A model generated the notes under the pieces. The model did no database searches. It saw only the letters and a list, made by a program, of their open reading frames with translations, and was not told where the DNA came from. From Clostridia bacterium (GTDB lineage Bacteria > Bacillota > Sulfobacillia > JAJZYS01 > JAJYTV01), in the NCBI GenBank assembly GCA_027420455.1, contig DAIBJA010000078.1, forward strand, positions 5,669 to 69,668: a DNA stretch of 64,000 bases, read 5' to 3'. Position 1 is the stretch's first letter, and each line of letters opens with the position of its first letter. This document shows positions 6,863 to 63,407 of this stretch, in pieces. Both the position numbers and the translations under genes were made by a program.

Positions 6863-6959
6863 ATCGAAGCCCTTTCGACATGGCCATCCTCGGCGCCTTC
6901 GCAGGATTCGAGCTCGTTCGCACGGAATACGGCGCCGGAGGTGCTGCGTTCTGGTCCAG

Positions 6960-7568
6960 TTGAAGGGCGGACGGGGTGGCGTGCGCCTCGTCATCGGTCC
7001 CCGGCCGGACCCTCAGGCGTTGGTCGGAGAGATCATCCAGAGCCTTGAGGGCGCCGCCGGTTTTCTCGGAAATGCCCGCATCGCGGTGGAGATCGCCGAC
7101 GACACGATTTCGCCCGAGCTCACCGCGGCCGTCAGTGAGGCCCTACGGCGCTTTCCCGGGCTCGGTCTCGCCAGCATCGGCCCCAAGCCCCACGCGCAGC
7201 CCTCGCGAGGCGACGAGCCCAAGGTGGTGCGCAGAACCGTACGTTCGGGTCAGGAAGTGACGCACCAGGGCGATCTCGTAGTGCTGGGCGATGTGCACGT
7301 CGGAGGTCGGCTCGTGGCCACCGGCGACGTGATCGTCGTCGGTGCACTGCGCGGCTTCGCCTGGGCAGGTGCCGAAGGCAACGAGAGCGCCATCATCTAC
7401 GCCCAGGAGCTGTCGCCGACGCAGGTGCGCATCGCCAGCGCCATCGCCCAGGGCGCGCCCTCAGCGCCCGGCGGTGCCGAATACGCCCACCTCGAGGACG
7501 GCAACATCGTCGTGGAGCCGTGGGTGGCGAAAGGCGGTCGCCGCACCCCCGCGCGCCAAAGGCCCTAG
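6960..7568 (+). CDS. minC: septum site-determining protein MinC
   Basis: C-terminal beta-helix motif: GQEVTHQGDLVVLGDVHVGGRLVATGDVIVVGALRGFAWAG...AIIYAQELSPTQVRIA. The start is ambiguous (TTG 6960 or GTG 6981). Confidence 0.75.
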   Translation: MKGGRGGVRLVIGPRPDPQALVGEIIQSLEGAAGFLGNARIAVEIADDTISPELTAAVSEALRRFPGLGLASIGPKPHAQPSRGDEPKVVRRTVRSGQEVTHQGDLVVLGDVHVGGRLVATGDVIVVGALRGFAWAGAEGNESAIIYAQELSPTQVRIASAIAQGAPSAPGGAEYAHLEDGNIVVEPWVAKGGRRTPARQRP

Positions 7569-7617
7569 TCGCGCTCAGGAAGAGGGCCCACCGCAAGCGC
7601 GGCGGGCTCTCTTCTCG

Positions 7618-8274
7618 TCACCGTGCGAACGTGACCTGCACGAGCATGGCATAGCTCGGTCCAGGCGTCGTCAGCCTCCGCATGTGGACGCTGACCACCT
7701 GCGGCCGCCCGAGCTGTTCCTGGAGAGCGGAGGCAATCGCCTGCGCGTCACCTCTCGCGGCCCGGACGGCTGCGGCCACCGCACTCGCCCGTTCACTCGC
7801 GCTCGGGGCTTGATACTGGTCCGCGGTGCCCTGGACCATGGTGGCGCCACTCGCCACGGCAGCGTCGATGGCCGCGCCGAGTTGACCGGCCTTGGCGATG
7901 CGCGCCACCACGTTCTGCACCACGACATAGCCGTCGCCCTGCTGGCTGCGCTGCAACGCCCCGATGCGGTAGCCTTGCACCTTGACATCGGTCGTGGGGA
8001 CACCGGCCGAGCGGAGTCCCTGCCGCAGACGCTCAAGGGCGGCTTGCGCGTCGGACTGCGCCGAGCGGCTGTCCTGTGCGTGCGTCTCGATGCCGAGGTA
8101 GAGCGTGGCGCCCTCCGTAGGCGCTGCGACAGGTTCTTCCTCCGTAACCGTCAGCGTCGTATCGTTGGCCTTCACTTCCGCTGCGCGTCCTGTGCGTGGC
8201 GTCAGAGCCATGAGTGCGACCGCAAGAACCGCCATCGTCGTGAGAGCAGGCAGGGTACCACGAAACCATTGCAC
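7618..8274 (-). CDS. SIMPL/DUF541 domain protein (secreted)
   Basis: Has a signal peptide. The pattern LYLGIETHA...A...ALERLRQGLRSAGV...DVKVQGYRI is typical of the SIMPL family. Confidence 0.65.
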   Translation of the reverse strand: MQWFRGTLPALTTMAVLAVALMALTPRTGRAAEVKANDTTLTVTEEEPVAAPTEGATLYLGIETHAQDSRSAQSDAQAALERLRQGLRSAGVPTTDVKVQGYRIGALQRSQQGDGYVVVQNVVARIAKAGQLGAAIDAAVASGATMVQGTADQYQAPSASERASAVAAAVRAARGDAQAIASALQEQLGRPQVVSVHMRRLTTPGPSYAMLVQVTFAR

Positions 8275-8386
8275 GGAACCGCCTCCCTGCAGCCAGCATT
8301 CCCCTGCGTGAACTGGACATGCGTTCCGCAGGAAGGGTCCCGCTGGCAGCGAAGGCTAAAAGGCTACCAGTTGCGGAGGTGGGACC

Positions 8387-11227
8387 ATGCGCAGATATCT
8401 TGGCGCCTTGGCAGCGGTGGTGCTGCTTGCGCCCTTTGTCGCTGCCGCGACGCCGGCCGCCGCTCAGGCGCCGTTTTCCGATGTGCCCTCGACCTATTGG
8501 GCCGCAAGTGCCATCGACGCGCTCGCGGCACAGGGCGTCATCCGCGGCGAACCGGACGGACTCTTCCATCCGCTCGCGCCCGTGACGCGGGCCCAGTTCG
8601 CCGCCATGATCGTGCGCGCCGAACACCTGCCGAAGGTCAGCGTCGGGCCGAATTTCAACGACGTCACCCCTGCCAATACGCTCTACGCCGACATCGAGAC
8701 GGCTGCAGCCGACGGCCTGATGCTCGGTGAAAGCCTGACAAAGTTCGCGCCAGGAGCCACGATCAACCGGGCCATGGCGGCCACCATCGCGGTGCGGGCC
8801 ATCGGGCTCGGACCTCTGGGCAACGACCTCCAAAGCCAGCCGGCAGGCTACGCCGACAGTGCCCGCATCCCGAGCTATGCGCTCGGCTACGTGGTGGCGG
8901 CCAAGCGCCTTGGCCTGATGCAGGGCATGGCGGGCAACGTCTTCGACCCGGCGGGCTCCCTCGACCGCGCACAGGCCGCAGCCGTCATCTACCGCATGCT
9001 CGGTCTCCCGCCGCAAAGCATCTCGTCGCTGGCCGCGTCGGTGGTCAGCCAGGTCAACGGCGGAAGTTCCGCCACCTCGATCGCGGTCGGACAGTCCACC
9101 ACACTCTGGTCTGTCGCCCGCGACGCCTCGGGTCTCCCGGTACCTGCCACGGTGACGTGGAGCGCAAGCGGTGGCACGCTCAACGGCACGACCTTCAGCG
9201 CCCAGTCGCCGGGCAGCTATCAGCTGATGGCGACCGTGCAGGGTTCTTCAGCGAGGAAGGCCATGACCATCCACGTCGAGCAGGCCACTTCGCTCGCCAT
9301 CTACGGCCTGCTGGAAGTGGCCGGACCGGGTGCCACGGTGCCGGTGCAGGTAACGGTCCTCGACCAGGGCGGCAAGCGCGACGTCGCCGACGGGTCCCGC
9401 GCCATCACGCTGACGGCGACCAACGCGAGCTCGCAGCCGGTCACCCTGACCCAGACTGCCCAGGCAGGCCAGACGACCTTCAATTTCGCGCCGCCAGCCG
9501 CGGGACCGTGGTCCCTCACAGCCAGCGCGCCGGGCCTCGCGAGCGGCACGGCGGCCTTCGATGTCCTCGCCACACCTTTCCCCAGTCCGTTGCAGCTGAC
9601 CGGCCCGGCCCAGATCCTGCCGGGGCAATCCGCTGCCGTGACGGCCAGCCTGCCGACAGGGGCGAGCGAGTCGTCGCCCGTCACCCTGACATCGAGCAAC
9701 CCGGCCGTGGTGTCGGTAGGGGGATCCGGCACGGACTCCTTGACGCCAGCGGGCCTCTCCTTCCAGGTGCAGGCCCTTGCACCTGGCAGCGCCACGCTCA
9801 CCCTGAGCAACGGCGCGGGCGCCTTCGAGAGCGCCACGCTGGCGGTTACGGTGCCGGCGCTCGGCCAGTTGGCCCTTCCCGCGCCAGCCGCGGTCACGGC
9901 GGGTCAGCAGGCGACGGCCATCGTCACGGTCATGCCCAGCCTGCCGGCACCACCTCCCAGCGTCGCCCTCACGCTCGTGAATCCGCAAGGCGTCTCCGTC
10001 GCCACCATGACGGCCACAGCCCAGGGTAGCGCCGCATCGTTCAATCTTCAGGAGGACGAGGCCGGCACGTGGCAGCTCAAGGCGTCGGCACCTGGCTATA
10101 CCCCGGCGACGACCAGCTGGGTAATCAATCCGGGTCCCGCGACGCAGCTGATCGCCACCGGCGCTCCGTCCACCATCGTCGTGGCTGGCCAGAGCGCGAA
10201 CCTGCAGGTCATGCTGGCCGACAGCTACGACAATCCCGTGGCGTCGCCGCTCAGCGTTGCCCTGACGACGCAGGGCAACGCCGGGACCCTGACCGGAGTC
10301 GCAACGGCCCTGCCCGGTCCAGGCCCGGCGGCGGTGTTCGACGCCACGACTCCCGGCACCGAGACCGTCGACGTCAGCGATCCCGCGGCACCTCAGTTCG
10401 GCACTCAAGCGGTTACCTTCCGCGTCATCGCCCAGAGCGCGGACGTCGTTGCGGGAAAGGGATTCTGGCTGCTCAGCAGCGACCTGGCCAAGATACCCGC
10501 GCCGCAGCTCATCGCCCAGCTGAAAAGCCTGGGCGCGACCCACGTCTACCTCGAGGTGGAGACCAGCTACGGCTTCTACGGCAGCGACCAGCTGCGCACA
10601 TTCCTCTTTCAGGCGCACGATGCAGGCATCGCGGTGATCGCCTGGGTCTACCCGTACCTCAACAACGTAGCCCTCGACGAAAGCCTGACACAGCAGGTGG
10701 CGGACTACGTAGCCCCAACCGGCGACAAGCCGGACGGCATCGCGGCGGACATCGAGGAGAACCTGAGCGCCTCGGCCGTCTCGAGTTATGCCGCGGCGGT
10801 GCGTCAGGCGCTCGGCCCTGCCGGCGTCCTGATCGCTGTGACCTACCCGCCCATCTACCACGAGAACTATCCCTACGCCGCCCTGGCACCTTACGTCACG
10901 CTCTACGCGCCCATGGACTACTGGCACTATCAGGCCACGAGCGAAGATTTCACCCAGGCCTATCAGTACGTGAACCAGACCGTCGGGCTGATACGGCAGC
11001 TCTCCGGCCTGCCTCAGGTGCCGGTCACCGTCATCGGACAGTCCTACGACATGTTCTCGAGCGGCGCACAAGGCGTCTTCAGCCCGACACAGCTGGAAAT
11101 CGAGGCGGCCTTCCAGGCTGCGAGCGATGCAGGCGCTATCGGCATCTCCTTCTACAGGCTGCCGACCGCGACCGCGAGCGAACTGCAGACGATTGAGACG
11201 CTGCCCTTCCCGGACGCGAGCAACTGA
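8387..11227 (+). CDS. S-layer homology (SLH) domain cell-surface protein with Ig-like repeats and C-terminal TIM-barrel-like glycoside-hydrolase-like domain
   Basis: Signal peptide, then three SLH repeats (FSDVP..YWAA.AI..L...GVI.G; FNDV; YADS). Long Ala/Thr/Ser-rich beta repeats follow. The C-terminus reads GFWLLSS...GATHVYLEVETSYG...AWVYPY. Confidence 0.75.
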   Translation: MRRYLGALAAVVLLAPFVAAATPAAAQAPFSDVPSTYWAASAIDALAAQGVIRGEPDGLFHPLAPVTRAQFAAMIVRAEHLPKVSVGPNFNDVTPANTLYADIETAAADGLMLGESLTKFAPGATINRAMAATIAVRAIGLGPLGNDLQSQPAGYADSARIPSYALGYVVAAKRLGLMQGMAGNVFDPAGSLDRAQAAAVIYRMLGLPPQSISSLAASVVSQVNGGSSATSIAVGQSTTLWSVARDASGLPVPATVTWSASGGTLNGTTFSAQSPGSYQLMATVQGSSARKAMTIHVEQATSLAIYGLLEVAGPGATVPVQVTVLDQGGKRDVADGSRAITLTATNASSQPVTLTQTAQAGQTTFNFAPPAAGPWSLTASAPGLASGTAAFDVLATPFPSPLQLTGPAQILPGQSAAVTASLPTGASESSPVTLTSSNPAVVSVGGSGTDSLTPAGLSFQVQALAPGSATLTLSNGAGAFESATLAVTVPALGQLALPAPAAVTAGQQATAIVTVMPSLPAPPPSVALTLVNPQGVSVATMTATAQGSAASFNLQEDEAGTWQLKASAPGYTPATTSWVINPGPATQLIATGAPSTIVVAGQSANLQVMLADSYDNPVASPLSVALTTQGNAGTLTGVATALPGPGPAAVFDATTPGTETVDVSDPAAPQFGTQAVTFRVIAQSADVVAGKGFWLLSSDLAKIPAPQLIAQLKSLGATHVYLEVETSYGFYGSDQLRTFLFQAHDAGIAVIAWVYPYLNNVALDESLTQQVADYVAPTGDKPDGIAADIEENLSASAVSSYAAAVRQALGPAGVLIAVTYPPIYHENYPYAALAPYVTLYAPMDYWHYQATSEDFTQAYQYVNQTVGLIRQLSGLPQVPVTVIGQSYDMFSSGAQGVFSPTQLEIEAAFQAASDAGAIGISFYRLPTATASELQTIETLPFPDASN

Positions 11228-14815: not shown

Positions 14816-14924
14816 CGAGCTACCCCCTGCCCTGTTTCTATGGCTCGTCGCGACAGGGAAGACCAGGCCCGGGTAAGAGCGCATATGCTGTCTGCGGTTC
14901 GATTTCGGTCAAGGGGGACTCAGG

Positions 14925-42768: not shown

Positions 42769-42864
42769 TGGCGGGAGCAGGTGGGAATCGAACCCACCGC
42801 GGACCGTAAAGCCCGCCGGCTGGATTTGAAGTCCAGGGGCTGCACCAGCAGGCCGTCTGTTCCC
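42769..42864 (-). tRNA. selC: tRNA-Sec (anticodon UCA), CCA encoded
   Basis: The minus strand reads GGGAACAG-AC-GGCCTGC-TGGT-GCAGCCC-CTGGA-CTTCAAA-TCCAG-(long variable arm CCGGCGGGCTTTACGGTCCGCGG)-TGGGTTCGATTCCCA-CCTGCTCCC-G-CCA. It has an 8-bp acceptor stem (one A.C mismatch) and a long D stem with a 4-nt loop, and resembles E. coli selC. Confidence 0.85.
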
Positions 42865-47142: not shown

Positions 47143-47330
47143 TTCCTATCGCCTCCGTAGAAGGCGATCATGCCCTTTCTCCCCCTGCAGATTCAAGGCA
47201 TTAAACCCGATTGCTTCCTACTAAACTTTTCTCTTCTCACGGGCCGCCGGGCATGCTCGCACGTGCTGGATCGCGACACCAATGTCCCCAACGACACGTT
47301 CAGTCAAACTTTCGAGTGACGTAGGACCTC

Positions 47331-48365
47331 TCAGACGAGATGGCTTCGCACCGACATCTCGACGCTGTTCTCGAGCGCAGCCCAGGAAAGGTAGCCGTGC
47401 CGCCCTCGCGGCGCGGCGACGATGCGCTCAAGACGCTGGCGCTCGCTCGTCCACGGTTCCTTGTACGCTTCATCGCCGCGCAGGAAGTCGAAGGTTCCGA
47501 CCCCTTCCTTCGCCGCTAGCCTGATCGCGTTCCAGAGCAGTATCAGGCCCGGAGAGAAGCGCGCCATGTCAGGATCGAACCCAGCCGCGTAGTAGCTGTA
47601 GCTCTCTCCGCCGCGCAGTGCGTAGAGCAGCGCCACCGTGCGGTCCCCGGACCTCAGGCGTACGAGCCGGAGGAGTCCCGCCTCGGCGTGATGCATGGCG
47701 ACAGTTACGTGAAAGGCTCTGCGCCTGCCGAAAAAGCTGCCCGGAGTCCCGCGACGCCGAAAGCGCGCCGAATGCCAAGCCATGAGTTGGGCCATGGCCC
47801 GCGGCACGTCCTCGCGCGGCACAAGATCCACAGCCAACGGCGCCTCACGGCCTAGGCGGCGCTCTGCGTAGCGGCAACGCCTGCGCAAATCGGAAGACAG
47901 CCCCGCCTCGACGGCCTCAGGGCCGCCCGCCAGGTCGAGCCTGCGATAGGCCTCGCCGGGCAGCCGCATCACCCGATAGTCCTGCCGCGACATCGCCTCT
48001 ACAAGGAGGTGACAGGAGCCCTCTTGGCGCGGCAAATCGACGACGGGTCTGCCGCCGCGCGCGAACCACTCCGCAAACGCCTGCAGCGCGTCGTTCTCTC
48101 TTCCGGGAGCTAAAAGCGGCGAGAGATAGTCGGCAAGGAGTGCACCGGCCGGACGCACGACAGCCCCAGGCCTGACGGGCCAGACACCGCAGAGCTGACC
48201 GGCATCGCGAGCGACGAGGTAACCGACGCCTCTGCCGCCATACGTCTCATGGCGTGCGAGATGCCATTGGGGTCCGGCAAAGGGACTCGCACCTGCCCAC
48301 TGCCAGAGGTCGTGCCACGCTATGAGCAGATCGGGATCGGGAAGTTCACACAGTTCGGTATTCAT
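47331..48365 (-). CDS. GNAT-type acetyltransferase, CelD/BioF2-like (Acetyltransf_6-like)
   Basis: The C-terminal FDFLRGDEAYKEPW signature is typical of the family. Start ATG 48365 overlaps the dedA stop (ATGA). Confidence 0.6.
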   Translation of the reverse strand: MNTELCELPDPDLLIAWHDLWQWAGASPFAGPQWHLARHETYGGRGVGYLVARDAGQLCGVWPVRPGAVVRPAGALLADYLSPLLAPGRENDALQAFAEWFARGGRPVVDLPRQEGSCHLLVEAMSRQDYRVMRLPGEAYRRLDLAGGPEAVEAGLSSDLRRRCRYAERRLGREAPLAVDLVPREDVPRAMAQLMAWHSARFRRRGTPGSFFGRRRAFHVTVAMHHAEAGLLRLVRLRSGDRTVALLYALRGGESYSYYAAGFDPDMARFSPGLILLWNAIRLAAKEGVGTFDFLRGDEAYKEPWTSERQRLERIVAAPRGRHGYLSWAALENSVEMSVRSHLV

Positions 48366-48961
48366 CCGTCGCTGCGTGCTCGATGTGTGAGGTGCCACCA
48401 GAGGAAGGCGGCAACAGCCACCACGACGACGGCCAACGTGATCAGCCCCGCGCCGTGCTCGATGAGGCTCTCGACACCGCGGCCGATGCCCATCCCTAAG
48501 AGAGACCAGAAGAGCGCCCATATGCCGTCTCCGATGATGGATCCCACCACGTACGGCAAGAGTGGTGCGCGCACGACCCCCGCGCCAAGGATGGCCGGCG
48601 TGCGCGTAACCCCGATCCAGCGTGAAATGGCCTGGGCAAACAGACCGTAGCGGGCAAACCAGTCTTCCACGCGCTGCATGGCCTGAGGCGGGATATGCAG
48701 CATGGTGATCGCCCGATCCAGCAGCGGCCTGCCGCCCATGCGGCCCACACCATAGCCGATCGCGTTGCCGAGCACGTTGCCAAAGGTCACGACGAGCCAG
48801 ACCATCGTGAGCGACATCTCGCCGCGCCCGATCAGGACGCCGGCAGCAACAAAAAATAGCTCGATCGGGCCAGGCATGCCTGTGCCTTCGATCGTGCTCA
48901 CCAGCAAAAGCAAGGGATAGCCGTACATGGACAGCAGATCACGCAGGTGATCCGACGTCAT
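48362..48961 (-). CDS. DedA family membrane protein
   Basis: Reads YGYPLLLLVSTIEGTGMPGPIELFFVAAGVL...FGNVLGNAIGYGVGR.GGRPLL. Confidence 0.8.
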   Translation of the reverse strand: MTSDHLRDLLSMYGYPLLLLVSTIEGTGMPGPIELFFVAAGVLIGRGEMSLTMVWLVVTFGNVLGNAIGYGVGRMGGRPLLDRAITMLHIPPQAMQRVEDWFARYGLFAQAISRWIGVTRTPAILGAGVVRAPLLPYVVGSIIGDGIWALFWSLLGMGIGRGVESLIEHGAGLITLAVVVVAVAAFLWWHLTHRARSDG

Positions 48962-49172: not shown

Positions 49173-49330
49173 TTCAACCGCTCCTTTGCCGCGGTCCTCC
49201 CGCGATCAGAATGCGTACAGTATAGCACACGCGTCGGCGGCAGGCACTTGCACACGGCCCCGCCGCGTGCGACACTCGGTCCAGTGATCGTACGCGATAC
49301 CCGCGACGCATCGCCATGCAAACACATACT

Positions 49331-49500
49331 AAGCGCCAGCACTCGCCTCTAGAGGCGAGTGGACGAGGTGGGGGATCTCGGAGCTTTCGGCGGGTGACCC
49401 CCGGTTCGCCTGGACCGTCAAAGACCTCACAAAGCCAGGGAGCGATCCCTTGGGGGAAAAGGGTCGGCAGGCGAGGGACGCAATTGCGCACCCCTCTATC
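49331..49500 (+). ncRNA. glmS ribozyme (GlcN6P-dependent self-cleaving riboswitch)
   Basis: Sequence runs A/AGCGCCAG - P1 hairpin CACTCGCCTCTAGAGGCGAGTG - GACGAGG - TGGGGG...TTCGGCGGGTGACCCCCGGT...CAAAGCCAGGGAGCGATCCCTTGGGGGAAAA. It matches the conserved core as I recall it from Bacillus. The 3' limit is approximate. Confidence 0.85.
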
Positions 49501-49554
49501 TGCATGGCCTGCGCAGCTATCGCGTGAACATGCAGCGAAGGGGTGTTTTTGCTT

Positions 49555-51357
49555 ATGTGCGGCATCATGGGCTATGTCGGCCCAAGACCCGCAGCCGAAG
49601 TGCTGCTGGGTGGTCTCAAACGTCTCGAATACCGTGGCTACGACTCGGCAGGCATCGCGTTGGCCGACCAGGGCAAGATCTACCTGCAGCGCAAGGCAGG
49701 CGCCTTGCGGATACTGGAGGACGTGCTTGCCAAGTCGCCTCCTCCTTTGAGCCACATCGGCATCGGTCACACGCGTTGGGCGACGCACGGAGGTGTCTCG
49801 GACCGTAACGCCCATCCGCATACCGACTGCAACGGCGAGATCGCCATCGTGCACAACGGAATCATCGAGAATGCCGACGAGCTGAGGGCCGACCTTCTGG
49901 CAGCGGGTCATGTCCTTCGCTCGGAAACAGACTCTGAGCTTGTCGCGCACCTCCTTGAGACAGGACCCGCCGATCTGCGTCTTCGCCTGAGCGGAGTCGC
50001 GCAACGCTGCGAAGGAGCTTACGCCCTGCTGGTGATGGACGTGCATCAGCCAGATCGCCTGATCGCCGTGCGGCGCACAAGCCCCATCGCCATTGGTGCG
50101 ACGGCGGACGAAGCCTACGTGGCATCCGGCGCGATCGCACTCGCCCCGTGGCTCGGCGAATGCATCTACCTCGACGACGGCGAGATCGCCGACATCCGCC
50201 CAGGCAAGATCGAGGTCTTCCGCCTGACCGATCTGGCACCGATCGCCAAGATGCTGCACCCGATCGAGGGTGACGGGGAGTTGCCCGATGCGGGCGAGCA
50301 CGGCACCTTCTATCGCAAGGAGCTCATGGAGCAGCCCATCGCCTGGCGCCGCGTCATGGCCGGCAGGCTGGACGACCAGGGTCAGGTCAACCTGCGCGAG
50401 GACGGCATCGACCAGGAGTTCCTCCGAACGGTACAGCGCGTGGTGTTCCTTGCGATGGGCTCCTCACTGCACGCGTGTCAGATGGCGGTGGAACGCCTCG
50501 GCGATATCGTGGAACTTCCGGCGCAGGCCGAGCTCGCAAGCGAATTCCGGGACACGAGGACTTTCCTCGAGCCCGGCACGTTGGCGATCGCCGTCAGCCA
50601 GTCTGGCGAGACGATCGATACCCTCGCCGCGCTACGCCACGCGCGCAACTTGGGTGCAAGGATCCTGTCGCTAGTGAACGCACCTGGGTCTACCATCGCC
50701 CGTGAGAGCGACTATGTGCTCGACCTGAGGGCAGGATTCGAGATCTCCGTCGCATCAACCAAAGCCTTCACCACCCAGGTCATCGCGCTGGAACTCCTCA
50801 CGGCCGCCCTTGCGCAAGCCAAGGGGCGTCCTCTGCCACCCACGGACCTGCACGCGCTGCGCGCCGTGCCAACGGTGGCAGAGGACTTCCTCGACGACTT
50901 CGAATTGCCGAAGGAGTTGGTCGCGACCTGCGCCGGAGCTCCAGGTGTGATCTTTCTCGGCCGGGGACAGGACCTGAGCCTCGCGCGCGAGGGCTCACTC
51001 AAGCTCAAGGAGCTCTCGTACGTCTGGAGCGAGGCGTTCGCCGCGGGAGAGTTGAAGCACGGGCCGCTTGCACTCGTCGACCAGCGGGTTCCCGTGATCG
51101 TCTGCGTGACCGATCCGACACACGCGGTGAAACTCCGTAGTTCTCTCGCAGAGGCAACCGCCCGCGGTGGCTTTGGTGTGGCCATCGGCGCCGACTTGGG
51201 CGCAACGTTGCAAGTGACCCTCCCCCTCAAGGAGCGAATTGGCGCCTACCTCCTGGGTGCGCTACCGCTGCAACTTCTTGCGGTGGAGGTAGCTGAGTCC
51301 AGGGGGTGCCCAATCGACCAACCCCGTAATCTAGCGAAATCGGTGACGGTCGAATAG
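49555..51357 (+). CDS. glmS: glutamine--fructose-6-phosphate aminotransferase
   Basis: MCGIMGYVG provides the N-terminal Cys nucleophile. Two SIS domains follow, and the C-terminus reads ...PRNLAKSVTVE. Confidence 0.97.
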   Translation: MCGIMGYVGPRPAAEVLLGGLKRLEYRGYDSAGIALADQGKIYLQRKAGALRILEDVLAKSPPPLSHIGIGHTRWATHGGVSDRNAHPHTDCNGEIAIVHNGIIENADELRADLLAAGHVLRSETDSELVAHLLETGPADLRLRLSGVAQRCEGAYALLVMDVHQPDRLIAVRRTSPIAIGATADEAYVASGAIALAPWLGECIYLDDGEIADIRPGKIEVFRLTDLAPIAKMLHPIEGDGELPDAGEHGTFYRKELMEQPIAWRRVMAGRLDDQGQVNLREDGIDQEFLRTVQRVVFLAMGSSLHACQMAVERLGDIVELPAQAELASEFRDTRTFLEPGTLAIAVSQSGETIDTLAALRHARNLGARILSLVNAPGSTIARESDYVLDLRAGFEISVASTKAFTTQVIALELLTAALAQAKGRPLPPTDLHALRAVPTVAEDFLDDFELPKELVATCAGAPGVIFLGRGQDLSLAREGSLKLKELSYVWSEAFAAGELKHGPLALVDQRVPVIVCVTDPTHAVKLRSSLAEATARGGFGVAIGADLGATLQVTLPLKERIGAYLLGALPLQLLAVEVAESRGCPIDQPRNLAKSVTVE

Positions 51358-51381
51358 TCGTTTCTTGTTTACCAATGGGAT

Positions 51382-51480
51382 TGTGAGAGGGGATTTGAAA
51401 TCCGCCCTGGGGAAAAGAAATCCGCCGGGGGATTTAGAGATCCGCCCTGGGTCGGTTGTGAGCGGGGATTCGAAGCCGAG
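51382..51480. repeat. TGT-initiated block of three 20-bp periodic repeats (GARATCCGCCSKGGG) plus duplicated TGTGAG(A/C)GGGGATT(T/C)GAA, 24 nt downstream of the glmS stop; candidate transposon end / att site
   Basis: Read directly. TGTGAGAGGGGATTTGAAATCC starts at 51382. Repeat units start at 51397, 51417 and 51437. A second TGTGAGCGGGGATTCGAAGCC starts at 51457. Confidence 0.5.
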
Positions 51481-51981
51481 AAACTCGACGCGCGTGGGGG
51501 AGGAGACTTGGCCGCCGACAGTGACGGCGTTCGTCGCTGGGCATTGCCTCTACGCTAACGCAGAAGAAGCTTGTGCTAGTGGAGGGTACGCAGAACCCCA
51601 TGCCAAAGGTCAGCGGCCCCCTCATGGCTTGCGGTGGCGGCTCCCGTGTCGTGTACGACTTGCGTATCGTTGCCGTCTACCGTGCAGCGGCCAACGCAGA
51701 CCGCGATCACGGGCACAGCAAGGCCCCCTCGCTCGCATCCCTGCACCCTCGCCTCAATCGCATCCGCGGCCACGGCGGCCTTGTGCTCCTCGTCGGCGAT
51801 CACTGCCTCCAGCCGCTTCTCCCCTTGCTCCAGCCGGCACGGTTCATCCCCCGAGATGGCGGAAGCATCAGATGCGTTCAGCCGTGTCGTTGCACAGGGT
51901 TACCATGAGGGATTGCCGCACTGAACCGACTCGGCGTCCGTGCTCCCCAGCCGCCAGCCCGCAGTCACCACATTGTTCCGG

Positions 51982-52049
51982 ACTCCGGACAATCCGGAGT
52001 ACGTCAACGCCATCGAGGGGCCAGGAACACAGTTCCTGGCCCCTCGATG
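51982..52049. other. two adjacent perfect hairpins (8-bp stem at 51982-52000; 18-bp stem with 3-nt loop at 52011-52049)
   Basis: ACTCCGGA-CAA-TCCGGAGT and CATCGAGGGGCCAGGAAC-ACA-GTTCCTGGCCCCTCGATG. Confidence 0.6.
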
Positions 52050-52057
52050 TTCGGATA

Positions 52058-52232
52058 GCCCATCTGTCCATGAGCGACCTCAGTTCAGGCCGGTCACCAC
52101 TGCGATTAGGTAGATACCGCAACCTCTGTCTGCACGAGACCCCAGTGGAGGCCTGCCCAATAGCCCTCCGCCGTTGCGGTAGTCCTTACTGCAACCTCTG
52201 TCTGTGAGAGACCTCAGCGCAGGAGTCGGCCT
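52058..52232. repeat. three degenerate ~35-nt direct repeats (period 61 and 72 nt), each with GTC(C/T)-N5-(C/A)GAC mini-hairpin
   Basis: TCTGTC cores at 52064, 52125 and 52197. Unit consensus is approximately ACCTCTGTCTGNGAGAGACCTCAGNGNAGG. Pairwise identity is about 70-80 %. Confidence 0.5.
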
Positions 52233-52458
52233 AGCGTCCCACTGGAAATACACTTTACCACACCAAGCTGCGAGCGGGAACTTTCAGCCCTATCCCGACT
52301 CTCACCGACCGGCGCCCGAACAAGAGTTCACGGGCGACGGACTACTCGCCAGCTGCGTCATTGCTTTCTCTCCTGAAGTAGTTTGCAGAGACACCGGTTG
52401 AGATGGTGGTTGAACTAATTTCGCCGCCCGCCCCTGCTGGTACTGAATCCACATTGCA

Positions 52459-52878
52459 TCAACACTTCTGCCGATCCGAGATGGCCGTACGAACTTTTTC
52501 GACGCACCCTACAAGGTCGAGCCTTAGTTCATGCTCCCAAAACCGCAGCACCCGCCAGCGGTTGGCTCGCAGGCGTGCTGTGACGAGAGCATCGCGAAGC
52601 CGGTTCCTTGCCACCTTGGCCTGCCAGTACTCGGCGTTGCCCTTGGGCGCTCGGTAGCAGTCGGGACATCCATGCCAAAAGCACCCGTCCACGAACACAG
52701 CGACCTTTGCTCGCCCGAACACGATGTCGGGCTTGCCATCCAGAGTCTTCAGGTTTACCCGCCAGCCCCTTACGCCTGCACGCCACAAGGCTTTGCGCAA
52801 GGCCAACTCGGGCTGGGTGTTCTTCGAGGCGACCGAGCGCATGATCTCGGAGCGGGTGAGCACCTTCGATCGACTCAT
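52459..52878 (-). CDS. vsr: very short patch repair endonuclease
   Basis: Reads RSEIMRSV.SKNT.PE...PDIVF...KVAVFVDGCFWHGC...W..K...N..RD. ATGA overlap with dcm. Confidence 0.9.
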   Translation of the reverse strand: MSRSKVLTRSEIMRSVASKNTQPELALRKALWRAGVRGWRVNLKTLDGKPDIVFGRAKVAVFVDGCFWHGCPDCYRAPKGNAEYWQAKVARNRLRDALVTARLRANRWRVLRFWEHELRLDLVGCVEKVRTAISDRQKC

Positions 52879-54125
52879 CCCGCAGCGCCTGGTTCCGCCT
52901 CTTGGCCGACATCGCCGAGCAGGGCGCGGGCGTAGGCCATGGCTAACGCGCGCGCCAGAAGCGGCGGAACAGCGTTGCCGACGTGGCGCTGCTGCGTTTC
53001 CGTGACTCCAAAGAACCTGAACCGGTCGTCAAAGCTCTGAAGCCGTGCCGCCTCCCGCACGGTCAGGCTTCGCAAATCGCGGTAGTGCGTGAAGCGCCCG
53101 CTTCCCGGGTTGGAGAAGCTTGTGGTGATTGTCTGAGCGATTCCGCGGCGGTGGAGCCGAGCATACGCCTGGCTGAAGTAAGTGTCGGAGAACCGCTGGT
53201 CGTCGGCCAACTCCTGGTTTCTGCTACCCTCTTCGATGATGCGGATCTTCTCCAGAAACTCCTTCGAGTGCCTGCGCGCCTTGTGGTTGAACAGCAAGCT
53301 CGACCCCTGCCTGCGCTCTGCCTGGAACCTTGTCAGCGCAGGACCCCCATACGGCACGGCCTCTGCCCCCTCCCCTGGTTGCAAGGGCGGCAAGTCGCCG
53401 ATCGCGTCTTCTACCGTGATGTAGCTGCCGGCGATGCGCTGGATCTCTCCGCCGCCGGCATCGTCTTCGGACGGCATCAGCATGCGAGCGTTGGTGAGCC
53501 TTGGGTACGACCCGCGCGGGATGAATGGCGTGCCCAGCCCGGCGTTCCTGCGAAAGCCTACCACGATCGTCCGCTGCCGAAGCTGGGGCACGCCATACTC
53601 GTTGGCGAACACTAGCTCCGCCTTGGTGTCGTAAAGCGGCTCCACGAGGAGCGCGAACCTGTCCAGCAGATACTCACCGGTCTGGGACAGCAGAGTGGGG
53701 ACGTTCTCCATCAGGAACATGCGCGGGCGCAGCTCCAACAAGAGTGACGCGTAATCGAAGATTCGCTCGTTCCGAGGGTCGTCTGGCGACCACTTCTTCA
53801 AGCGCGAGAACCCTTGGCACGGGGGTCCGCCCACAACGATGTCGATGTCCTCGTCGTTCGAGAGGCGCGCGTGCCTGCGAATCTCGGCAGCGAGTGCTGC
53901 GGCGGAAGAACCGGCGTGGGTGTTGAGGTCTTGGACCCAGTAGGCAACGCGAGGGTGGTTCTGCTTGAACGTCGCCGCCGCCTCGCCGTCGACGTCCACG
54001 AGAAGGCGCACGTCGTAGAGCGGCGGTGCGCCGTCCTGCTTGGCGCTCATGAACCCCAGGCTGAATCCACCCACTCCAGCGAACAGGTCCACCATTGAAA
54101 GCTGACGGTACGCCACGTGCCTCAC
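52875..54125 (-). CDS. dcm: DNA (cytosine-5)-methyltransferase
   Basis: DLFAGVGGFSLGF (motif I), GGPPCQGFS (IV), ENV (VI), PQLRQRTIVVGF (VIII), GNAVPP (X). Start taken at GTG 54125, which overlaps the upstream TGA. ATG 54095 is an alternative start. Confidence 0.9.
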   Translation of the reverse strand: MRHVAYRQLSMVDLFAGVGGFSLGFMSAKQDGAPPLYDVRLLVDVDGEAAATFKQNHPRVAYWVQDLNTHAGSSAAALAAEIRRHARLSNDEDIDIVVGGPPCQGFSRLKKWSPDDPRNERIFDYASLLLELRPRMFLMENVPTLLSQTGEYLLDRFALLVEPLYDTKAELVFANEYGVPQLRQRTIVVGFRRNAGLGTPFIPRGSYPRLTNARMLMPSEDDAGGGEIQRIAGSYITVEDAIGDLPPLQPGEGAEAVPYGGPALTRFQAERRQGSSLLFNHKARRHSKEFLEKIRIIEEGSRNQELADDQRFSDTYFSQAYARLHRRGIAQTITTSFSNPGSGRFTHYRDLRSLTVREAARLQSFDDRFRFFGVTETQQRHVGNAVPPLLARALAMAYARALLGDVGQEAEPGAAG

Positions 54126-55960
54126 CCTTGGAAGAGGAAGTCCTTGAGGTCCTGTGCCGCGGCGTCCATGACGCGCTGCCGTATTTGGTCGATTGCCTGG
54201 TCGACGGCTTCTGGCGTGAGCGTGCCTTGCAAGCTGTACAAGGCGTCCTTGATGATGACGTCGACGTGCCTCTGAAAGAGGTATTCGCGCCAACGGTCGG
54301 AGTCCTGCCCTTCTCTGTCTAGGATGTGGCTTGCCAGCGGTCGGGTGGTGTTAATCCAGTAGTAACCGTTGTCGAAATCCTCCGGCCTCTGGTAGATCTC
54401 CGGCTGTCTGGGCAAGCACTGAAACGGCTCCGTGCTCCCAGGATGCTGCCAGTCGGCATCGTAGTTGGACAAAAGGACCTTCGGTGGACTGCTTGTCTTC
54501 TTGCTCTTGTCGCCGGCCCCAGCGCCCTGGTCACCGGATGGCCGAGGCTCACCCGACGGCGGGCGTTCATGGCCGCGTTCCCCGCCATCCTTACCCTGGT
54601 GGTCCGTGCCTTCGCCGCCAGACGGGTCAGCGGTCCCGCCAGGGATGTCCTGCCCCGCCCCGCCCGGCCCGCTTCCGCCGCCCGGCTCGTCGCCGCCAGA
54701 CTGGATCTCCCTTTGGGTGCGCGAAACGAAGCGCGAGGTAAAGTCGTTGAGCAGGTGGTTGTACTGTGCGGACTGCTGGAAGTCTCGCTCCTGCTCGTGC
54801 TGGCGGTCAAGGTCCATGAGCTCCGAAGCCAGATCCTCGACCTTGTTCTTCACCCACGCGAGCAGCTCATCCGTGAGGGCATTCTGCGCCAGCTTCTCCC
54901 TGTCGTTGCGTACGCAGTCCAACGCTTCAAGCGCGGGGCACTCGCACTCGCCGAAGATCGTCTCCGCCGCCGCGCGGCCTGCCACTACGCCCATCTCGCC
55001 GATCTTGTGGGTGGCCACGCAGCTGTCCTCGCACAGGAAGTCAACGGCATTCTGTGCAGCGCGTTCCCCCACGAGCGCGATGTTCGACACCCGAAGCTTC
55101 AACACGCCTGGCAACTGCGTTCCGCCCAGCGTGAGATCGATTGGGTCCTCCGTATCTCCAAAGGTGTCGGGGATCGCGAACTCCACCGGCTTCTCGTACC
55201 CAAGGCGCAGCGGGAGTTCCTCCGGCTGCAGCCTTACCATGGTGTCCCGGTACCGCACATAAACCGGGCGGCGCTGCAGCAGTCTGCTAACTTGCGGGTG
55301 CATGCGCACTTTCGACACGATCGTCTCCACGGTCGCCCTGCCACGAAACTCCTTGGGCTGCCGCCCTACGACAACCGTGAACCCGAGCTCTCCCCGCTCG
55401 ATGCTGCCGCGAATCTCCGCGGGCGCCCAGTCTAGGCTCACGTTCGCCTTCTCAAGGGCTTGCTCCAACGTCATGGGAACGTCCTTGAGGCCTTGCCTGT
55501 AGCCGTACGCGCCTCCATCAAAGCCGAAGGCGTTGAGCTTGCCCGCCCGGTAGGTCAGGAGGGTAGATGAGTTGAACATCTGCCGCATGTAGAGCTTCCC
55601 GCCGTTGCCGTGGCCTCCGAGCGTCCTTCTAAGACGCTGCCTTCCGGCGTGAACCGGCCTGCGCGCGGCTTCGGGATCGCCCCACCGCTTGAAGGAGCTG
55701 TCGATTCTTTCCTTGGTCATGCCAACGAAGTCCACGCAGCGAAAGACGCTGTCCCTCTTGGGTTTCGCCACGTCAAAGTCGAGCACGATGGCTTGCAAGC
55801 CCTCCGGGATCTGCTCGTGATTGTAAGCGTCGATGGAGTTCTTGATCCACTCGGCGAGTCCCTTAGGGTGGCTGCCCGCGAAGTCCACACCCACGACGTC
55901 TAGAAAGTGATCGTCAAATACGTTTCCTTCAGCGACAACGGGTCCTACCTCGATCGGCAA
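54122..55960 (-). CDS. GHKL-superfamily (MORC/MutL-like HATPase) protein with low-complexity linker and unassigned C-terminal domain
   Basis: N-box LAEWIKNSIDAY, DxGxG-like CVDFVGMT and G2 box GGHGNGGKLYM. A ~75-aa G/P/D/E-rich linker follows, then a ~115-aa C-terminal domain (YYWINTTRPLASHIL...). Confidence 0.7.
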   Translation of the reverse strand: MPIEVGPVVAEGNVFDDHFLDVVGVDFAGSHPKGLAEWIKNSIDAYNHEQIPEGLQAIVLDFDVAKPKRDSVFRCVDFVGMTKERIDSSFKRWGDPEAARRPVHAGRQRLRRTLGGHGNGGKLYMRQMFNSSTLLTYRAGKLNAFGFDGGAYGYRQGLKDVPMTLEQALEKANVSLDWAPAEIRGSIERGELGFTVVVGRQPKEFRGRATVETIVSKVRMHPQVSRLLQRRPVYVRYRDTMVRLQPEELPLRLGYEKPVEFAIPDTFGDTEDPIDLTLGGTQLPGVLKLRVSNIALVGERAAQNAVDFLCEDSCVATHKIGEMGVVAGRAAAETIFGECECPALEALDCVRNDREKLAQNALTDELLAWVKNKVEDLASELMDLDRQHEQERDFQQSAQYNHLLNDFTSRFVSRTQREIQSGGDEPGGGSGPGGAGQDIPGGTADPSGGEGTDHQGKDGGERGHERPPSGEPRPSGDQGAGAGDKSKKTSSPPKVLLSNYDADWQHPGSTEPFQCLPRQPEIYQRPEDFDNGYYWINTTRPLASHILDREGQDSDRWREYLFQRHVDVIIKDALYSLQGTLTPEAVDQAIDQIRQRVMDAAAQDLKDFLFQG

Positions 55961-55962
55961 CC

Positions 55963-56562
55963 TTAGGCACTCCCCTTCCGCTTTTCGATGATATTTGCGT
56001 ATCTGCTGACCATGTGGTCGTGGAACTTCCTCAGTTGTTCGGCACGTGGATGGCTAACCTCTTCTGCCGCCTTGACGGCGCCCTCCACGGTGGTCAGACG
56101 GCCGAGGAAGCCGCCGCGGTCGGTGCGCACTGTGGCGGCCAAATAGTAGTAGAGATCCGTGTCCACAACTTGGTCTGCCTTGCCGCCAGCGAACAATTGG
56201 TAGGCCTCCAGGCGCAAGATCCGGTCGATCTCATGCTCCTGGCTCCGGTCCAGCCGCTTCGCGGGTCCTCTCGGCGCATGCCCAGTAGCTCCCGCGAGCC
56301 GTGCAGCCTCTTCGAAGCCCTTGTCTGTCAATGAAAACCGCTTCTCCCGCGACACAACGAGCCCGCGGCTCTTCAATGGGCCGTACAGAGGCTTGTGCAC
56401 GTCCGAAGCGTCGGGGAACTCGGGGTACTTGCGCAGGGAGAAGTCCTGGGGGAAGCGCTTGAAGGCGCCCACCACGATGTCGTCGTAGTCAATGAACTGC
56501 GGCTCGCCGGCTGACAGCTCATACATGACGGCCAGGATCTCGTCAGCCTTGTTTCCCGGCAC
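55963..56562 (-). CDS. hypothetical protein (possible N-terminal winged-helix), operon partner of GHKL ATPase
   Basis: GAAGGAGGG lies 6 nt before GTG 56562. 199 aa. No family recognised. Confidence 0.55.
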   Translation of the reverse strand: MPGNKADEILAVMYELSAGEPQFIDYDDIVVGAFKRFPQDFSLRKYPEFPDASDVHKPLYGPLKSRGLVVSREKRFSLTDKGFEEAARLAGATGHAPRGPAKRLDRSQEHEIDRILRLEAYQLFAGGKADQVVDTDLYYYLAATVRTDRGGFLGRLTTVEGAVKAAEEVSHPRAEQLRKFHDHMVSRYANIIEKRKGSA

Positions 56563-57016
56563 GCGAAGCCCTCCTTCTTCGTGAAGTGCGGGGGGCCGAG
56601 ACGCGACCCGTGTCGACGGCCCGATCCCGCCCGGCCAGACCGTACATGCCCCTGGCCGTCCGTACAAAGCGCTTGTCCTTGCCGATGTGAGCCAACAGGT
56701 TCGCCCCCGGATTCACCCCGGAGAGCTGAGCGCCGTAGCGGCCGAGTTGCTGCGCCATCTCCACGTAGTGCATCGGCTGCCCGACCTGTGTCAGCAATTC
56801 GAACGCGGCATCGGACACTGTGCGTGAGCTTGGCGCCTCTGCCGCTGGTCTGTCCGTGACCTCAGCGAGCTCAAGAAGCTTTCGGACGTGCAATAGCTGC
56901 TGCTCCCGCTGGTCGATTTTCGCTTGCAGTGCCGCCTTGTCGGCATTGAGCTGCGCTAGCTCGCCCCGGAGTTCCTCCGCCCATCGTTGCAGCACTTCAG
57001 GGCCCAGGTCCTCCAT
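56543..57016 (-). CDS. coiled-coil + HARE-HTH domain protein
   Basis: SDAAFELLTQVGQPMHYVEMAQQLGRYGAQLSGVNPGANLLAHIGKDKRFVRTARGMYGLA matches the HARE-HTH pattern (..pm...ei...i............tl.a.l..d.rF.r..rG.ygL). AAGGGGG precedes ATG 57016. Confidence 0.65.
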   Translation of the reverse strand: MEDLGPEVLQRWAEELRGELAQLNADKAALQAKIDQREQQLLHVRKLLELAEVTDRPAAEAPSSRTVSDAAFELLTQVGQPMHYVEMAQQLGRYGAQLSGVNPGANLLAHIGKDKRFVRTARGMYGLAGRDRAVDTGRVSAPRTSRRRRASRAGKQG

Positions 57017-57038
57017 CCGGCCGCCCCCTTGCATTGGC

Positions 57039-57067
57039 ATGTTAGACCATTTTCAACGCATTGTCAA
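57039..57067 (-). promoter_or_regulatory. candidate promoter of the HARE-HTH/GHKL/dcm/vsr operon
   Basis: On the minus strand: TTGACA, 17 nt, TAACAT. This excludes the listed ATG 57040 as the start codon. Confidence 0.5.
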
Positions 57068-57869: not shown

Positions 57870-58520
57870 TCATCCGCGGAGCTGATCTGCTTCGTGCCCC
57901 GCAGAGCATCGCACACACGCTCCTCGGCCCCGTTGCGCATTCCGCAGATTGCCAGCTGTCCTCCCCCCTGCGGGCCGGCCCGACAGGTGTCCGAGCAGCG
58001 AGTAGCGGTCCGGCAAATGGACAGCACGCGTAGGATCGAGGACGCGCTCACAATGTTCTGCCGTGACGGTGACGAGCGTATGCCCGTCGCGCGACAAGGC
58101 GCGCAGGGCGCTCTCCAAGGCTGCGTGAACCAGCCCCGCCGCCATTTGCGCCTTTCGGCTTCGCGGGCCGCCAAGATGGCACATGCTGTCGTAGTCCGCC
58201 CAATGGGCCACGAGCAGGGCTGACCGCCGACCTGTCGAAGCCCTCGCCAGAACTTCGGCCAGCTCCATCAAATCGTCGTAGGCGGCCGCGCTTGCGCCAC
58301 GGGCGTGGTAGCGGCTGAGCGCGCTGCCCGCCAGTGCTCGCCGAGTGACGCTGACCTGTCTCCCCAGGCACGGTTCGCCAGTGCGCAGAAATGCAGGGGC
58401 ATCCCAGACCCCGGCGAACCCTGCGGGCAGAGGGCTCTGGAGGAGGGGTGCAGCCTTGGCCTTGACGCTTGAACAGATCCAGGAGAACGACCGGCGGTTT
58501 CTGACCGACTTCCACTCCAC
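57870..58520 (-). pseudogene. alkaline-phosphatase-superfamily (nucleotide pyrophosphatase / PglZ-like) fragment
   Basis: LLVAHWADYDSMCHLGGPRS...HTLVTVTAEHCE resembles the y..D..gH..Gp / ADHG motifs of the AP superfamily. Only ~200 aa are present. Its 5' end collides with a divergent ORF. Confidence 0.35.
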
Positions 58521-61151: not shown

Positions 61152-61502
61152 TGTCAAATATTCGTGTCATACATTTGTCATACAACACCTGCGACAGCTG
61201 CGCCAGAAGCGGCTTTCGGGAACAGCCTATACCTACCATGCGCCATCGCAGAGCCCATTTCGCCCTTTGTGAGACCAGATCGGCCGAATGGTAACAATTA
61301 GTGTCATACGTTGTTTATACAATTCCCCTGAAAGCCGCGCTAGGAGCGGCTTTCAGGTACGTCCTTTTCCTTCCATTCGACACAGTGGAGCGCGTTTTGG
61401 GCCGTTTTCGGACCTGTACACCGAGGGCCGCGTCAAATCTGTCATATGTTTGTCATACAAAACAGCCGCAAGCCATGCCAGGAGCAGCTTTCGGGCGCGC
61501 CC
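61152..61502 (+). repeat. Tn7-like transposon end: terminal TGT plus three direct ~65-75-nt repeat units (period 137/138 nt) each containing a GTGTCATAC(A/G)TTTGTCATACAA-type putative TnsB-binding site
   Basis: Units begin at 61164, 61301 and 61439, each preceded by GTCAAAT/GTAACAAT. All are in the same orientation, are AT-rich within GC-rich DNA, and lie upstream of tnsA. Confidence 0.6.
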
Positions 61503-62332: not shown

Positions 62333-62527
62333 ATGGTGGCTGAGGTGGCTGGACAGTCTGGCCCGATCTGGACGCTGGCGGAGGAAGGGCCGCAGATAGT
62401 ACTGGTTCTCAGCGTAGAAGAGCGGAGCGCGCTGTCTTCAGCCCTTGAGCGGCCACCTTTCCACTCCGTTCGAGACCAGGTCATCCCCCTGGTGCCCATG
62501 CCGTCGAACAGCGAGGAAGACATCTGA
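62333..62527 (+). CDS. hypothetical small protein
   Basis: 64 aa. GGGAGGGG lies just upstream of ATG 62333. Confidence 0.3.
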   Translation: MVAEVAGQSGPIWTLAEEGPQIVLVLSVEERSALSSALERPPFHSVRDQVIPLVPMPSNSEEDI

Positions 62528-62603
62528 AACCTCTCGTTGGAGTTTGACGGCTGGCGCAGAGGCCAAGCGACCGAGGGCTCGTAGGAAGTCAGGAGGGATT
62601 GGT

Positions 62604-63407
62604 GTGACCCGGAAGAGGAAGCCGCCTGGAACCATCCTTGACCACGGCGACCGGTATCAGCCCGCCATCCAAGCCCATGACATTCGCAGTCCACACTCCA
62701 AGCGCACCCGAATCTGGGGCGTCAAGACGCATCGTTTCCACCACCTGCTCTCCCAGCTCGAATGCAGCGTTTACTTCCAGGCGGAGCGCGACGGGAGGGT
62801 GAAGGACATCCAGGAGCAGTGCGAACTGAACCGTGACGAGACCGTGATGATCGCTGCTCGGCTGGGCTACCGACACCCTGCCGGCCAGCACGCCATGACC
62901 TCCGATTTCATCATCACCGTAGTTGCTCATGACGGGTCTACCCGTCAAATCGCTATACACGTAAAGCACGCTTCAAAGTTGTCCCGCAACATGGAATGGA
63001 TCAACGTGGAGGCCTATTATTGGAGTGCGATGGGCATCCCTCTTTATGTGATTACGGAGCTGGATATCGAGGCTGAAGTCATCCATAACGGTCAATGGCT
63101 GTACTTCGTGAATACGGCGGAGTTCGACCGCCTCAGTGCGTTGCCCAACTTCGGGGAGATAGTCTCCTCGCTGACCGCCTACGTGACCTCAGGGCGCAAG
63201 CTGTCGATGGCCTGCGAACAGGCTGAACGCGACTACGGACTGCCTCCCAACTCTGGCTTGCTGATGGCGAAAGTGCTCATTCGCGAACGGGGATGGGTCA
63301 CCGATCTCTCAGTCCGAATTCGACTCGGTAGGCCGTTAGTCTTGCTGGAAGACAGAACTCAGGAGTGGCTCAAGGAGGTAACGAACCGTGAAACTGCGAC
63401 TGCTTGA
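62604..63407 (+). CDS. tnsA: Tn7-like transposition protein TnsA (restriction-endonuclease-like)
   Basis: AGGAGGG precedes GTG 62604. Motifs LLSQLECSVYFQAE (S.LE), TSDFIIT (tPDFlv) and IHVKHASKL ((E/Q)VK) are in the TnsA order. Confidence 0.75.
   Translation: MTRKRKPPGTILDHGDRYQPAIQAHDIRSPHSKRTRIWGVKTHRFHHLLSQLECSVYFQAERDGRVKDIQEQCELNRDETVMIAARLGYRHPAGQHAMTSDFIITVVAHDGSTRQIAIHVKHASKLSRNMEWINVEAYYWSAMGIPLYVITELDIEAEVIHNGQWLYFVNTAEFDRLSALPNFGEIVSSLTAYVTSGRKLSMACEQAERDYGLPPNSGLLMAKVLIRERGWVTDLSVRIRLGRPLVLLEDRTQEWLKEVTNRETATA

Follow-up and report, generated by a model that had tools for sequence, protein, structure and literature searches.

Analysis of the 64-kb stretch of DNA studied here (the window) revealed a repeat block directly downstream of glmS, at positions 51382-51477, which most probably represents the glmS-proximal right end of a family of Tn7-type transposons (designated family 1) and belongs to a second, non-autonomous or decayed element. 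The observations that bear on this assignment are the position of the block, a sharp boundary of homology at its first nucleotides, a patchy distribution among related genomes, the presence of inverted partners in another genome and a Tn7R-like architecture. The patchy distribution, the sharp homology and the inverted partners argue for the end of a mobile element rather than for a native sequence. A similar reading had been put forward in a first-pass annotation of this DNA, which saw here the end of a Tn7-like element distinct from that at 61152 and either non-autonomous or decayed. This reading was strengthened by the related genomes, by the inverted ends found in one of them (L004) and by the agreement with Tn7 geometry, although neither a copy of the end adjacent to tns genes nor a far end within the window was found.

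The features of the window and of the related loci are listed in Table 1. The glmS ORF spans positions 49543-51357 (the TAG stop codon occupies 51355-51357), and the true start of the gene is probably the MCGI codon at 49555. The last 13 codons encode DQPRNLAKSVTVE, and comparison of the C-termini showed that this sequence is the same in E. coli GlmS. The final five nucleotides of the spacer that follows the stop codon (51377-51381) read GGGAT, which is the expected place of a 5-bp target duplication (the far end is absent from the window). The block itself opens with TGTGAGAGGGGATTTGAAATCC at 51382, and 20-nt repeats begin at 51397, 51417 and 51437; the units of the block are placed at 51389, 51409 and 51429, i.e. 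with a 20-nt period (+8, +28 and +48), and at 51464. A repeat search recovered three copies with 20/20 spacing, plus a terminal pair 75 nt apart, while TRF reported a period of 20 with 2.7 copies and a score of 68, which is the top score of the 64-kb window and its sole row with a 20-nt period. The unit motif occurs three times in 60 nt, compared with 0.93 +/- 0.96 occurrences expected across the whole window, and the observed whole-window total of 5 was reached by none of 100 shuffles. Two readings apply to the second terminal-type copy, at 51457: a fourth inner site, or the tip that belonged to an older copy. All sequence statements of the first-pass annotation concerning this layout (the TAG ending at 51357, the 24-nt spacer, the block starting with TGT, the three 20-nt units, the near-copy of the terminus and a palindrome) were borne out by re-reading. 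The palindrome, GGATTTGAAATCC, is not conserved in the other copies of the block (the counterparts are GGATTAGAAATCC in L004 and GGATTCGGAGTCC in L089), and is therefore probably incidental.

Table 1. Features of the window and of related loci discussed in the text.
Locus	Feature	Coordinates	Strand	Basis or remarks
Window	glmS ribozyme leader (context only)	49321-49476	+	Rfam RF00234, 71.7 bits, E 1.6e-14
Window	glmS, homing target	49555-51357	+	Pfam SIS and GATase domains
Window	24-nt spacer, glmS stop to element tip	51358-51381	+	read from sequence
Window	putative terminal site of the family-1 right end: 8-nt tip TGTGAGAG and first predicted transposase-binding unit GGGGATTTGAAATCCGCCCTGG	51382-51411	+	30.5 bits, profile of 8 family-1 termini
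Window	second unit GGGGAAAAGAAATCCGCCGGGGG, 20 nt past the first	51409-51431	+	repeat search; profile, 10.4 bits
Window	third unit GGGATTTAGAGATCCGCCCTGGG, 20 nt past the second	51429-51451	+	repeat search; profile, 13.9 bits
Window	second terminal-type copy TGTGAGCGGGGATTCGAAGCC, direct orientation	51457-51477	+	repeat and pattern search; profile, 9.4 bits
Window	about 1 kb without recognisable gene, directly inside the end	51481-52458	.	ORF/Pfam, Rfam, locus comparison
Window	possible cargo cluster, restriction-modification-like	52459-57040	-	Pfam, NCBIfam
Window	Vsr mismatch endonuclease	52459-52878	-	Pfam/NCBIfam
Window	C5 cytosine methylase	52875-54293	-	Pfam/NCBIfam
Window	612-aa and 234-aa proteins without family match	within 52459-57040	-	Pfam/NCBIfam
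Window	HARE-HTH protein	56543-57040	-	Pfam/NCBIfam
Window	end of a different, tns-carrying Tn7-family element: tip TGTCAAAT and three 22-nt TGTCATAC-type sites, 137-138 nt apart	61152-61460	+	sequence/repeat comparison
Window	tnsA-like ORF	62445-63407	+	Pfam TnsA N and C domains; 33% identity to E. coli Tn7 TnsA, E 5e-23
Window	tnsB start, leaving the window at 64000	from about 63409	+	32% identity to TnsB N-terminus, E 9e-9
L004	left end ...TAATCCCCCCTCACA, tip at 8770; inner inverted unit	8653-8666		
L004	left end, tip at 14929; inner unit	14866-14886		
L003	family-2 element TGGACTTTGACAAT...ATTGTCAGAGTCCA	3893-5414		1.5 kb, ECF sigma-factor cargo, 24 nt past glmS stop
L083	family-2 element	7729-8850		1.06 kb, RibD_C cargo, 25 nt past glmS stop

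GlmS-based searches yielded 13 related genomes (14 with the window), all of them Bacillota MAGs, Thermaerobacter-like, including one labelled Thermaerobacter sp. The GlmS tree revealed three clades: (i) clade I, ((window,(L001,(L002,L003))),L086,L005), (ii) clade II, (L082,(L083,L004)), and (iii) clade III, (L089,L090). L094 was left out of the tree and was placed in clade I because of its 91% GlmS identity to the window. Synteny upstream of glmS is conserved; downstream of the gene, the block alone is common to the window and any of the relatives. Family 1 was detected in four of the 14 genomes, namely the window, L004, L082 (a degenerate copy) and L089, so that it occurs once or twice in each of the three GlmS clades. 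The TGT of these blocks follows the glmS stop codon after 24 nt (window and L082) or 25 nt (L004 and L089), and the glmS-adjacent copies all share one orientation. A profile of the family-1 end (8 termini), run over 1.38 Mb of fetched loci plus the window, found matches only downstream of glmS, within approximately 10 kb of its stop codon, in those four genomes.

Comparison with relatives, as suggested in the first-pass annotation, revealed that the genomes nearest to the window (L094 and L001-L003, with 91-92% GlmS identity) are devoid of the block; what they have in its place is family 3, family 2 or something else. Other end families begin 23-26 nt past the glmS stop codon in nine further relatives, and the stop-to-end spacer is 23-26 nt across the 13 related genomes. 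These are (i) family 2 (TGGACTCTGACAAT...CTTTGTAAAGT..GTCCCT), found in L002, L003, L083 and L092, with a possible TGACAAT remnant in L086, and (ii) family 3 (TGTGGACCGACAAAAG..., with units CAATAGAAATCCGCGCT), found in L090, L093 and L094 and as a second block in L004; the blocks of L001 and L005 are without family assignment. The site is filled by ends without transposition genes in 12 of the 14 genomes. At least three end types fill the glmS site in this thermophilic Bacillota group, and family 1 represents a type of end new to this otherwise well-known kind of transposon. A stretch of approximately 760 nt without a called gene was also observed in L094 (11900-12660), between the family-3 end and a NUDIX gene.

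The conservation of the block differs sharply from that of its surroundings. Its first 53 nt show 91-96% pairwise identity among the window, L004 and L089 (96% and 91% for the window versus L004 and L089, respectively), whereas the same comparisons gave 65-69% for the last 300 nt of glmS, 36-48% for the glmS-to-block spacer (36-55% between species) and approximately 50% for the region 100-200 nt inside the block. The BLAST similarity of the window to L004 and L089 begins at the TGT (51382/51381). Such a sharp boundary, combined with the over-conserved 53 nt, points to the end of a mobile element with exchangeable cargo and not to a vertically inherited flank. The glmS-adjacent spacers are unrelated, except that the 12 nt preceding the TGT of the window match, in 10 of 12 positions, those preceding a degenerate copy in L004 at 8953. 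The degenerate block of L082 has ordinary genes behind it, the next of which begins approximately 108 nt past the block start, leaving nothing behind the block there. L089 contains a second direct end 492 nt in (at 4538), comparable to the 51457 copy of the window, and no inverted family-1 end was found there within 5 kb.

Beyond these genomes, a scan of metagenome DNA for AATCCGCCCTGGGNAAAAGAA returned one chance match, judged to be low-GC coding sequence of an unrelated gene (L081). Viral contigs gave no match to the DNA patterns of families 1, 2 and 3 or to the TnsA protein, and BLAST of the block against plasmids gave none. In an Acidimicrobiia MAG (L075, 3766-3800), the glmS stop codon is directly followed by CGGTGAGGGCACGAAATCCGCCC, a sequence similar to the family-1 tip plus a unit, possibly by chance.

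A search for an inverted copy marking the other end of the element, also suggested at the outset, was successful in L004. This locus carries a family-1 right end at 5675 (TGTGAG...) and inverted left ends (...CTCACA) at 8770, 9176 and 14929, in which the distance between tip and sites is 43-63 nt and 105-118 nt. The 3.1-kb element bounded by the first pair (5675-8770) contains a PIN/AbrB toxin-antitoxin pair and no transposase, while positions 8953-9176 correspond to a 224-bp MITE-like mini-element, located 3.3 kb from glmS and composed of a degenerate family-1 right end and a left end only. Immediately past the 8770 left end, at 8774, there is a family-3 right end (its tip bases are uncertain), which indicates that the 3.1-kb element is bordered by the glmS spacer on one side and by an older, resident end on the other. 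The flanking 5-mers in L004 are GTTGT and GCTGT (GCTGT is exact only with three extra bases on the right tip); since they are equal in four of five positions, the family-1 target duplication is imperfect. Two interpretations of this locus were dropped: the two direct copies as attL and attR of an integrative island, because of the inverted partners and the family-3 end at 8774, and a reconstructed 'empty site', whose alignment to family 2 was unconvincing.

The target duplications of the sister family 2 are perfect, with TTCGC on both sides of the L003 element and CGAAG on both sides of the L083 element. The sole cargo of these two elements is RibD_C (L083) or an ECF sigma factor (L003), plus one ORF. 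A second right end follows directly after the 1.06-kb element of L083, which represents tandem accretion. In both L004 and L083, multiple ends of a single family, right and left, are lined up, i.e. tandem and nested accretion at one attachment site, with cargo devoid of transposition genes. Tn7-type insertion at attTn7 is typically recognised by duplications of 5 bp, by a position and orientation that do not vary, and by tandem accretion. The tips and units of family 3 (L090, L093, L094) are intermediate in sequence between those of Tn7R and family 1. Counted against a Tn7-type reading were the family-2 tips, which are TGG...CCA and not TGT...ACA, the imperfect duplication in L004, and the tandem ends of the same locus, which are at odds with target immunity.

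No inverted family-1 end was detected in the 64-kb window, either with patterns allowing up to 3 mismatches or with the 8-sequence end profile. An inverted far end would read ...AATCCCCNCTCACA, with the GGGAT duplication predicted after it. A candidate left-end pair at 58036-58053 / 57951-57977 was rejected, its local alignment score of 19 being below the 99th percentile of the background, and another weak left-end candidate was noted at 52293-52304. A tblastn search with TnsA and TnsB of the window and of E. coli against 93 other loci, which covered all the family-1, -2 and -3 copies, gave no match (the sole cross-matches were those between the window and E. coli Tn7), and neither tnsA nor tnsB was found within 10 kb of any family-1, -2 or -3 end. 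The first-pass annotation had regarded its reading as refuted should the motif never be found beside tns genes; tblastn indeed revealed no tns-adjacent copy, in a sample of just 4 genomes and 9 ends. With no copy having tnsA or tnsB nearby, it is geometry and architecture only that link these ends to Tn7 proteins.

The claim that no tns gene follows the block holds for 11 kb, the first being the TnsA-like ORF, which lies behind a different type of end. This ORF and the tnsB start belong to the 61152 element, whose end motif is unrelated to that of the block at 51382. At a distance of 9.8 kb from glmS, the element points away from that gene, and its end precedes, in this order, a 259-aa ORF without an assigned family, the TnsA-like ORF and the TnsB start. 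The 24 nt preceding its tip are unlike the glmS spacer, so the element does not look like a displaced attTn7 insertion. The tnsAB genes of the window have an unrelated end of their own in front of them and would therefore not act on family-1 ends. The block, having no tnsA or tnsB nearby, was accordingly filed as non-autonomous or a relic and not as an autonomous Tn7-like element; considering also that no matching far end occurs within 12.6 kb, the window copy may be a relic left as an orphan, or else terminate an element that either is decayed and non-autonomous or extends past the window.

The DNA directly inside the end had been described as containing no credible ORF for about 1 kb, and none of the eight ORFs of 51365-52657 has a significant match in Pfam (the only hit, for 52403-52657, was a weak match to DUF6698 with E 0.08, below the cutoff). 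The segment 51481-52458 is similar to none of the related loci compared. This gene-less kilobase contains a perfect 18-bp hairpin (52011-52049) and, within 52053-52223, three direct repeats of 27-37 nt (at 52053/52063, 52115 and 52187, thus 62 and 72 nt apart, and 67-81% identical), two of which hold a TGTGAGAG-like core (TGTGAGAG, CATGAGCG). For the hairpin and repeats (52011-52223) there was no Rfam match and nothing similar in the related loci, and no cas genes were present among the window ORFs examined. The Vsr/Dcm/HARE-HTH cluster beyond may or may not be cargo of the family-1 element; it was detected in none of the related genomes fetched. On the other side of glmS, a 1.2-kb segment (47231-48415) with a GNAT (Acetyltransf_6) gene (47331-48521, minus strand) is missing in L001-L005 and present in L094; it is an ordinary indel and not an insertion sequence. 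A selenocysteine tRNA gene was identified concordantly by ARAGORN and Rfam at 42769-42864 (minus strand).

If the block is a Tn7-type right end, target recognition would fall to a TnsD-like selector, acting on the conserved end of the coding part of glmS, and binding of the 8-nt tip and the three to four units 20 nt apart to a TnsB-like transposase; the element would be joined approximately 25 nt downstream of the stop codon and in one orientation only. This scheme presumes TnsB-type binding and TnsD-type targeting. Another, rather unlikely, explanation is a large element that is still complete, with the window copy as its working right end, a left end past 64000, and the Vsr/Dcm cluster and a nested tnsAB enclosed between them. 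The window has kept the TGT tip and no fewer than three units intact, no left end precedes the window end, and in L004 a distance of 9.3 kb separates one family-1 left end from the closest glmS-proximal right end. However, the tnsAB genes sit behind their own unrelated end, and the loci of L082, with the next gene so close to the block start, and of L089, with no inverted end within 5 kb, speak against a large element. There is also a slim chance that orphan Tn7-type ends are kept beside glmS throughout the clade as 'immunity decoys', which close an essential site to cognate transposons, with competing families displacing each other. This would fit with the occupation of the site by gene-less ends in 12 of 14 genomes and with the terminal 53 nt being far better conserved than glmS; moreover, an immobile mini-element with TnsB sites in the att site cut the insertion of Tn6022 from about 100% to 2e-5% (PMC11014353). 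Yet several family-1 ends stand in tandem in L004, so immunity did not stop re-insertion there, the recent spread of active ends explains the conservation equally well, and no cognate transposase was found.

It appears very improbable that the block is native to the glmS 3' region, as a terminator, an RNA of the 3'-UTR or an array of sites bound by a host regulator. The fixed distance from the stop codon in four species, as well as the block of L082 and L089, which has ordinary genes right behind it and no evident island, is what a native element would look like. This reading is nevertheless largely refuted, given that the closest relatives lack the block and have unrelated blocks in its place, and that inverted pairs occur 3 to 9 kb from glmS in L004. 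The RNA fold of 51340-51500 was no better than that of shuffled sequences (z = 0.18), no terminator-like site was found in 51358-51480, and Rfam returned nothing relevant for the block either at gathering thresholds or at E <= 5. Hardly credible, finally, is the block as the attL junction of an island inserted by an integrase, a reading close to the alternative raised in the first-pass annotation (an att site belonging to some other integrative element). It would agree with L004 having two direct copies at a distance of 3.3 kb, and with the upstream flank of the second copy, which matches the window in 10 of 12 nt, but these copies have inverted partners with TGT...ACA tips, and the 5-bp target duplications in sister family 2 are a signature of transposition. 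No recombinase or integrase domain was detected with Pfam and NCBIfam among the ORFs tested in the window (52.4-61 kb) and in L004 (5.6-15.6 kb). The absence of an integrase from the scanned ORFs, the inverted pairs and the family-2 duplications all told against that alternative.

Read as the right end of a Tn7-type element, the block would bring into the Tn7 superfamily an end family not listed before, along with its two sister families. The glmS attachment site in this clade almost always holds gene-less Tn7-type ends or mini-elements with small cargos, i.e. a toxin-antitoxin pair, an ECF sigma factor, RibD_C and possibly the Vsr/Dcm restriction-modification cluster. For annotation purposes, the block would mark the true island boundary downstream of glmS and set the island apart from the neighbouring tns-carrying element. 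If a helper transposase is found, these short ends from thermophiles (a right end of approximately 75 nt, a whole element of 224 bp) could serve glmS-directed insertion tools; otherwise, they represent ordinary mobile-element biology, of which the clade-wide gene-less occupation is mildly interesting.

Tn7-like elements have 5'-TGT...ACA-3' termini and generate 5-bp duplications, and their autonomous members encode TnsA, TnsB and TnsC plus a TnsD/TniQ selector. Their right ends carry closely packed, direct transposase-binding repeats past a short tip, while the sites of the left ends are more dispersed. As a reference we used the E. coli chromosome with Tn7 at attTn7, read directly. Here a 25-nt spacer separates the glmS stop codon from TGTGGGCG, the 8-nt tip, which is followed by Tn7R sites at 2509, ~2529, 2550 and 2570 (a 20-21-nt period; the site at ~2529 was read from the 39-nt repeat copy at 2509), and tnsA starts at 2635, i.e. 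134 nt from the tip. The attTn7 geometry claimed for the window in the first-pass annotation thus matches a real Tn7 insertion. The window block resembles Tn7R in (i) the length of the spacer (24 versus 25 nt), (ii) the orientation with respect to glmS, (iii) an 8-nt tip starting with TGTG, (iv) three to four head-to-tail units with a 20-21-nt period, and (v) the GlmS C-terminus, which is identical. In contrast, its unit sequence is unrelated to that of Tn7R beyond a weak chain through family 3, no tnsA is located behind the end, and no left end is present in the window. Insertion of Tn7 is orientation-specific and occurs approximately 20 bp past the glmS stop codon, at a point that needs no particular sequence, while TnsD binds the conserved end of the glmS coding region (PMC2918618).

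The 224-bp copy of L004 resembles a MITE in consisting of two inverted ends and nothing else; unlike insertion-sequence-derived MITEs, family 1 is glmS-specific and not dispersed, it has multiple Tn7-type units, and its window copy is one-ended. Elements of the Tn5053/Tn402 type also have terminal inverted repeats with several short direct transposase-binding repeats, and generate 5-bp duplications like those of family 2, but they target the res sites of plasmids and transposons and not the glmS 3' flank. A literature search found no papers on natural non-autonomous Tn7-like mini-elements; the gene-less elements of families 1 and 2 described here are natural, occur in thermophilic Bacillota and are as small as 224 bp and 1.06 kb, respectively.
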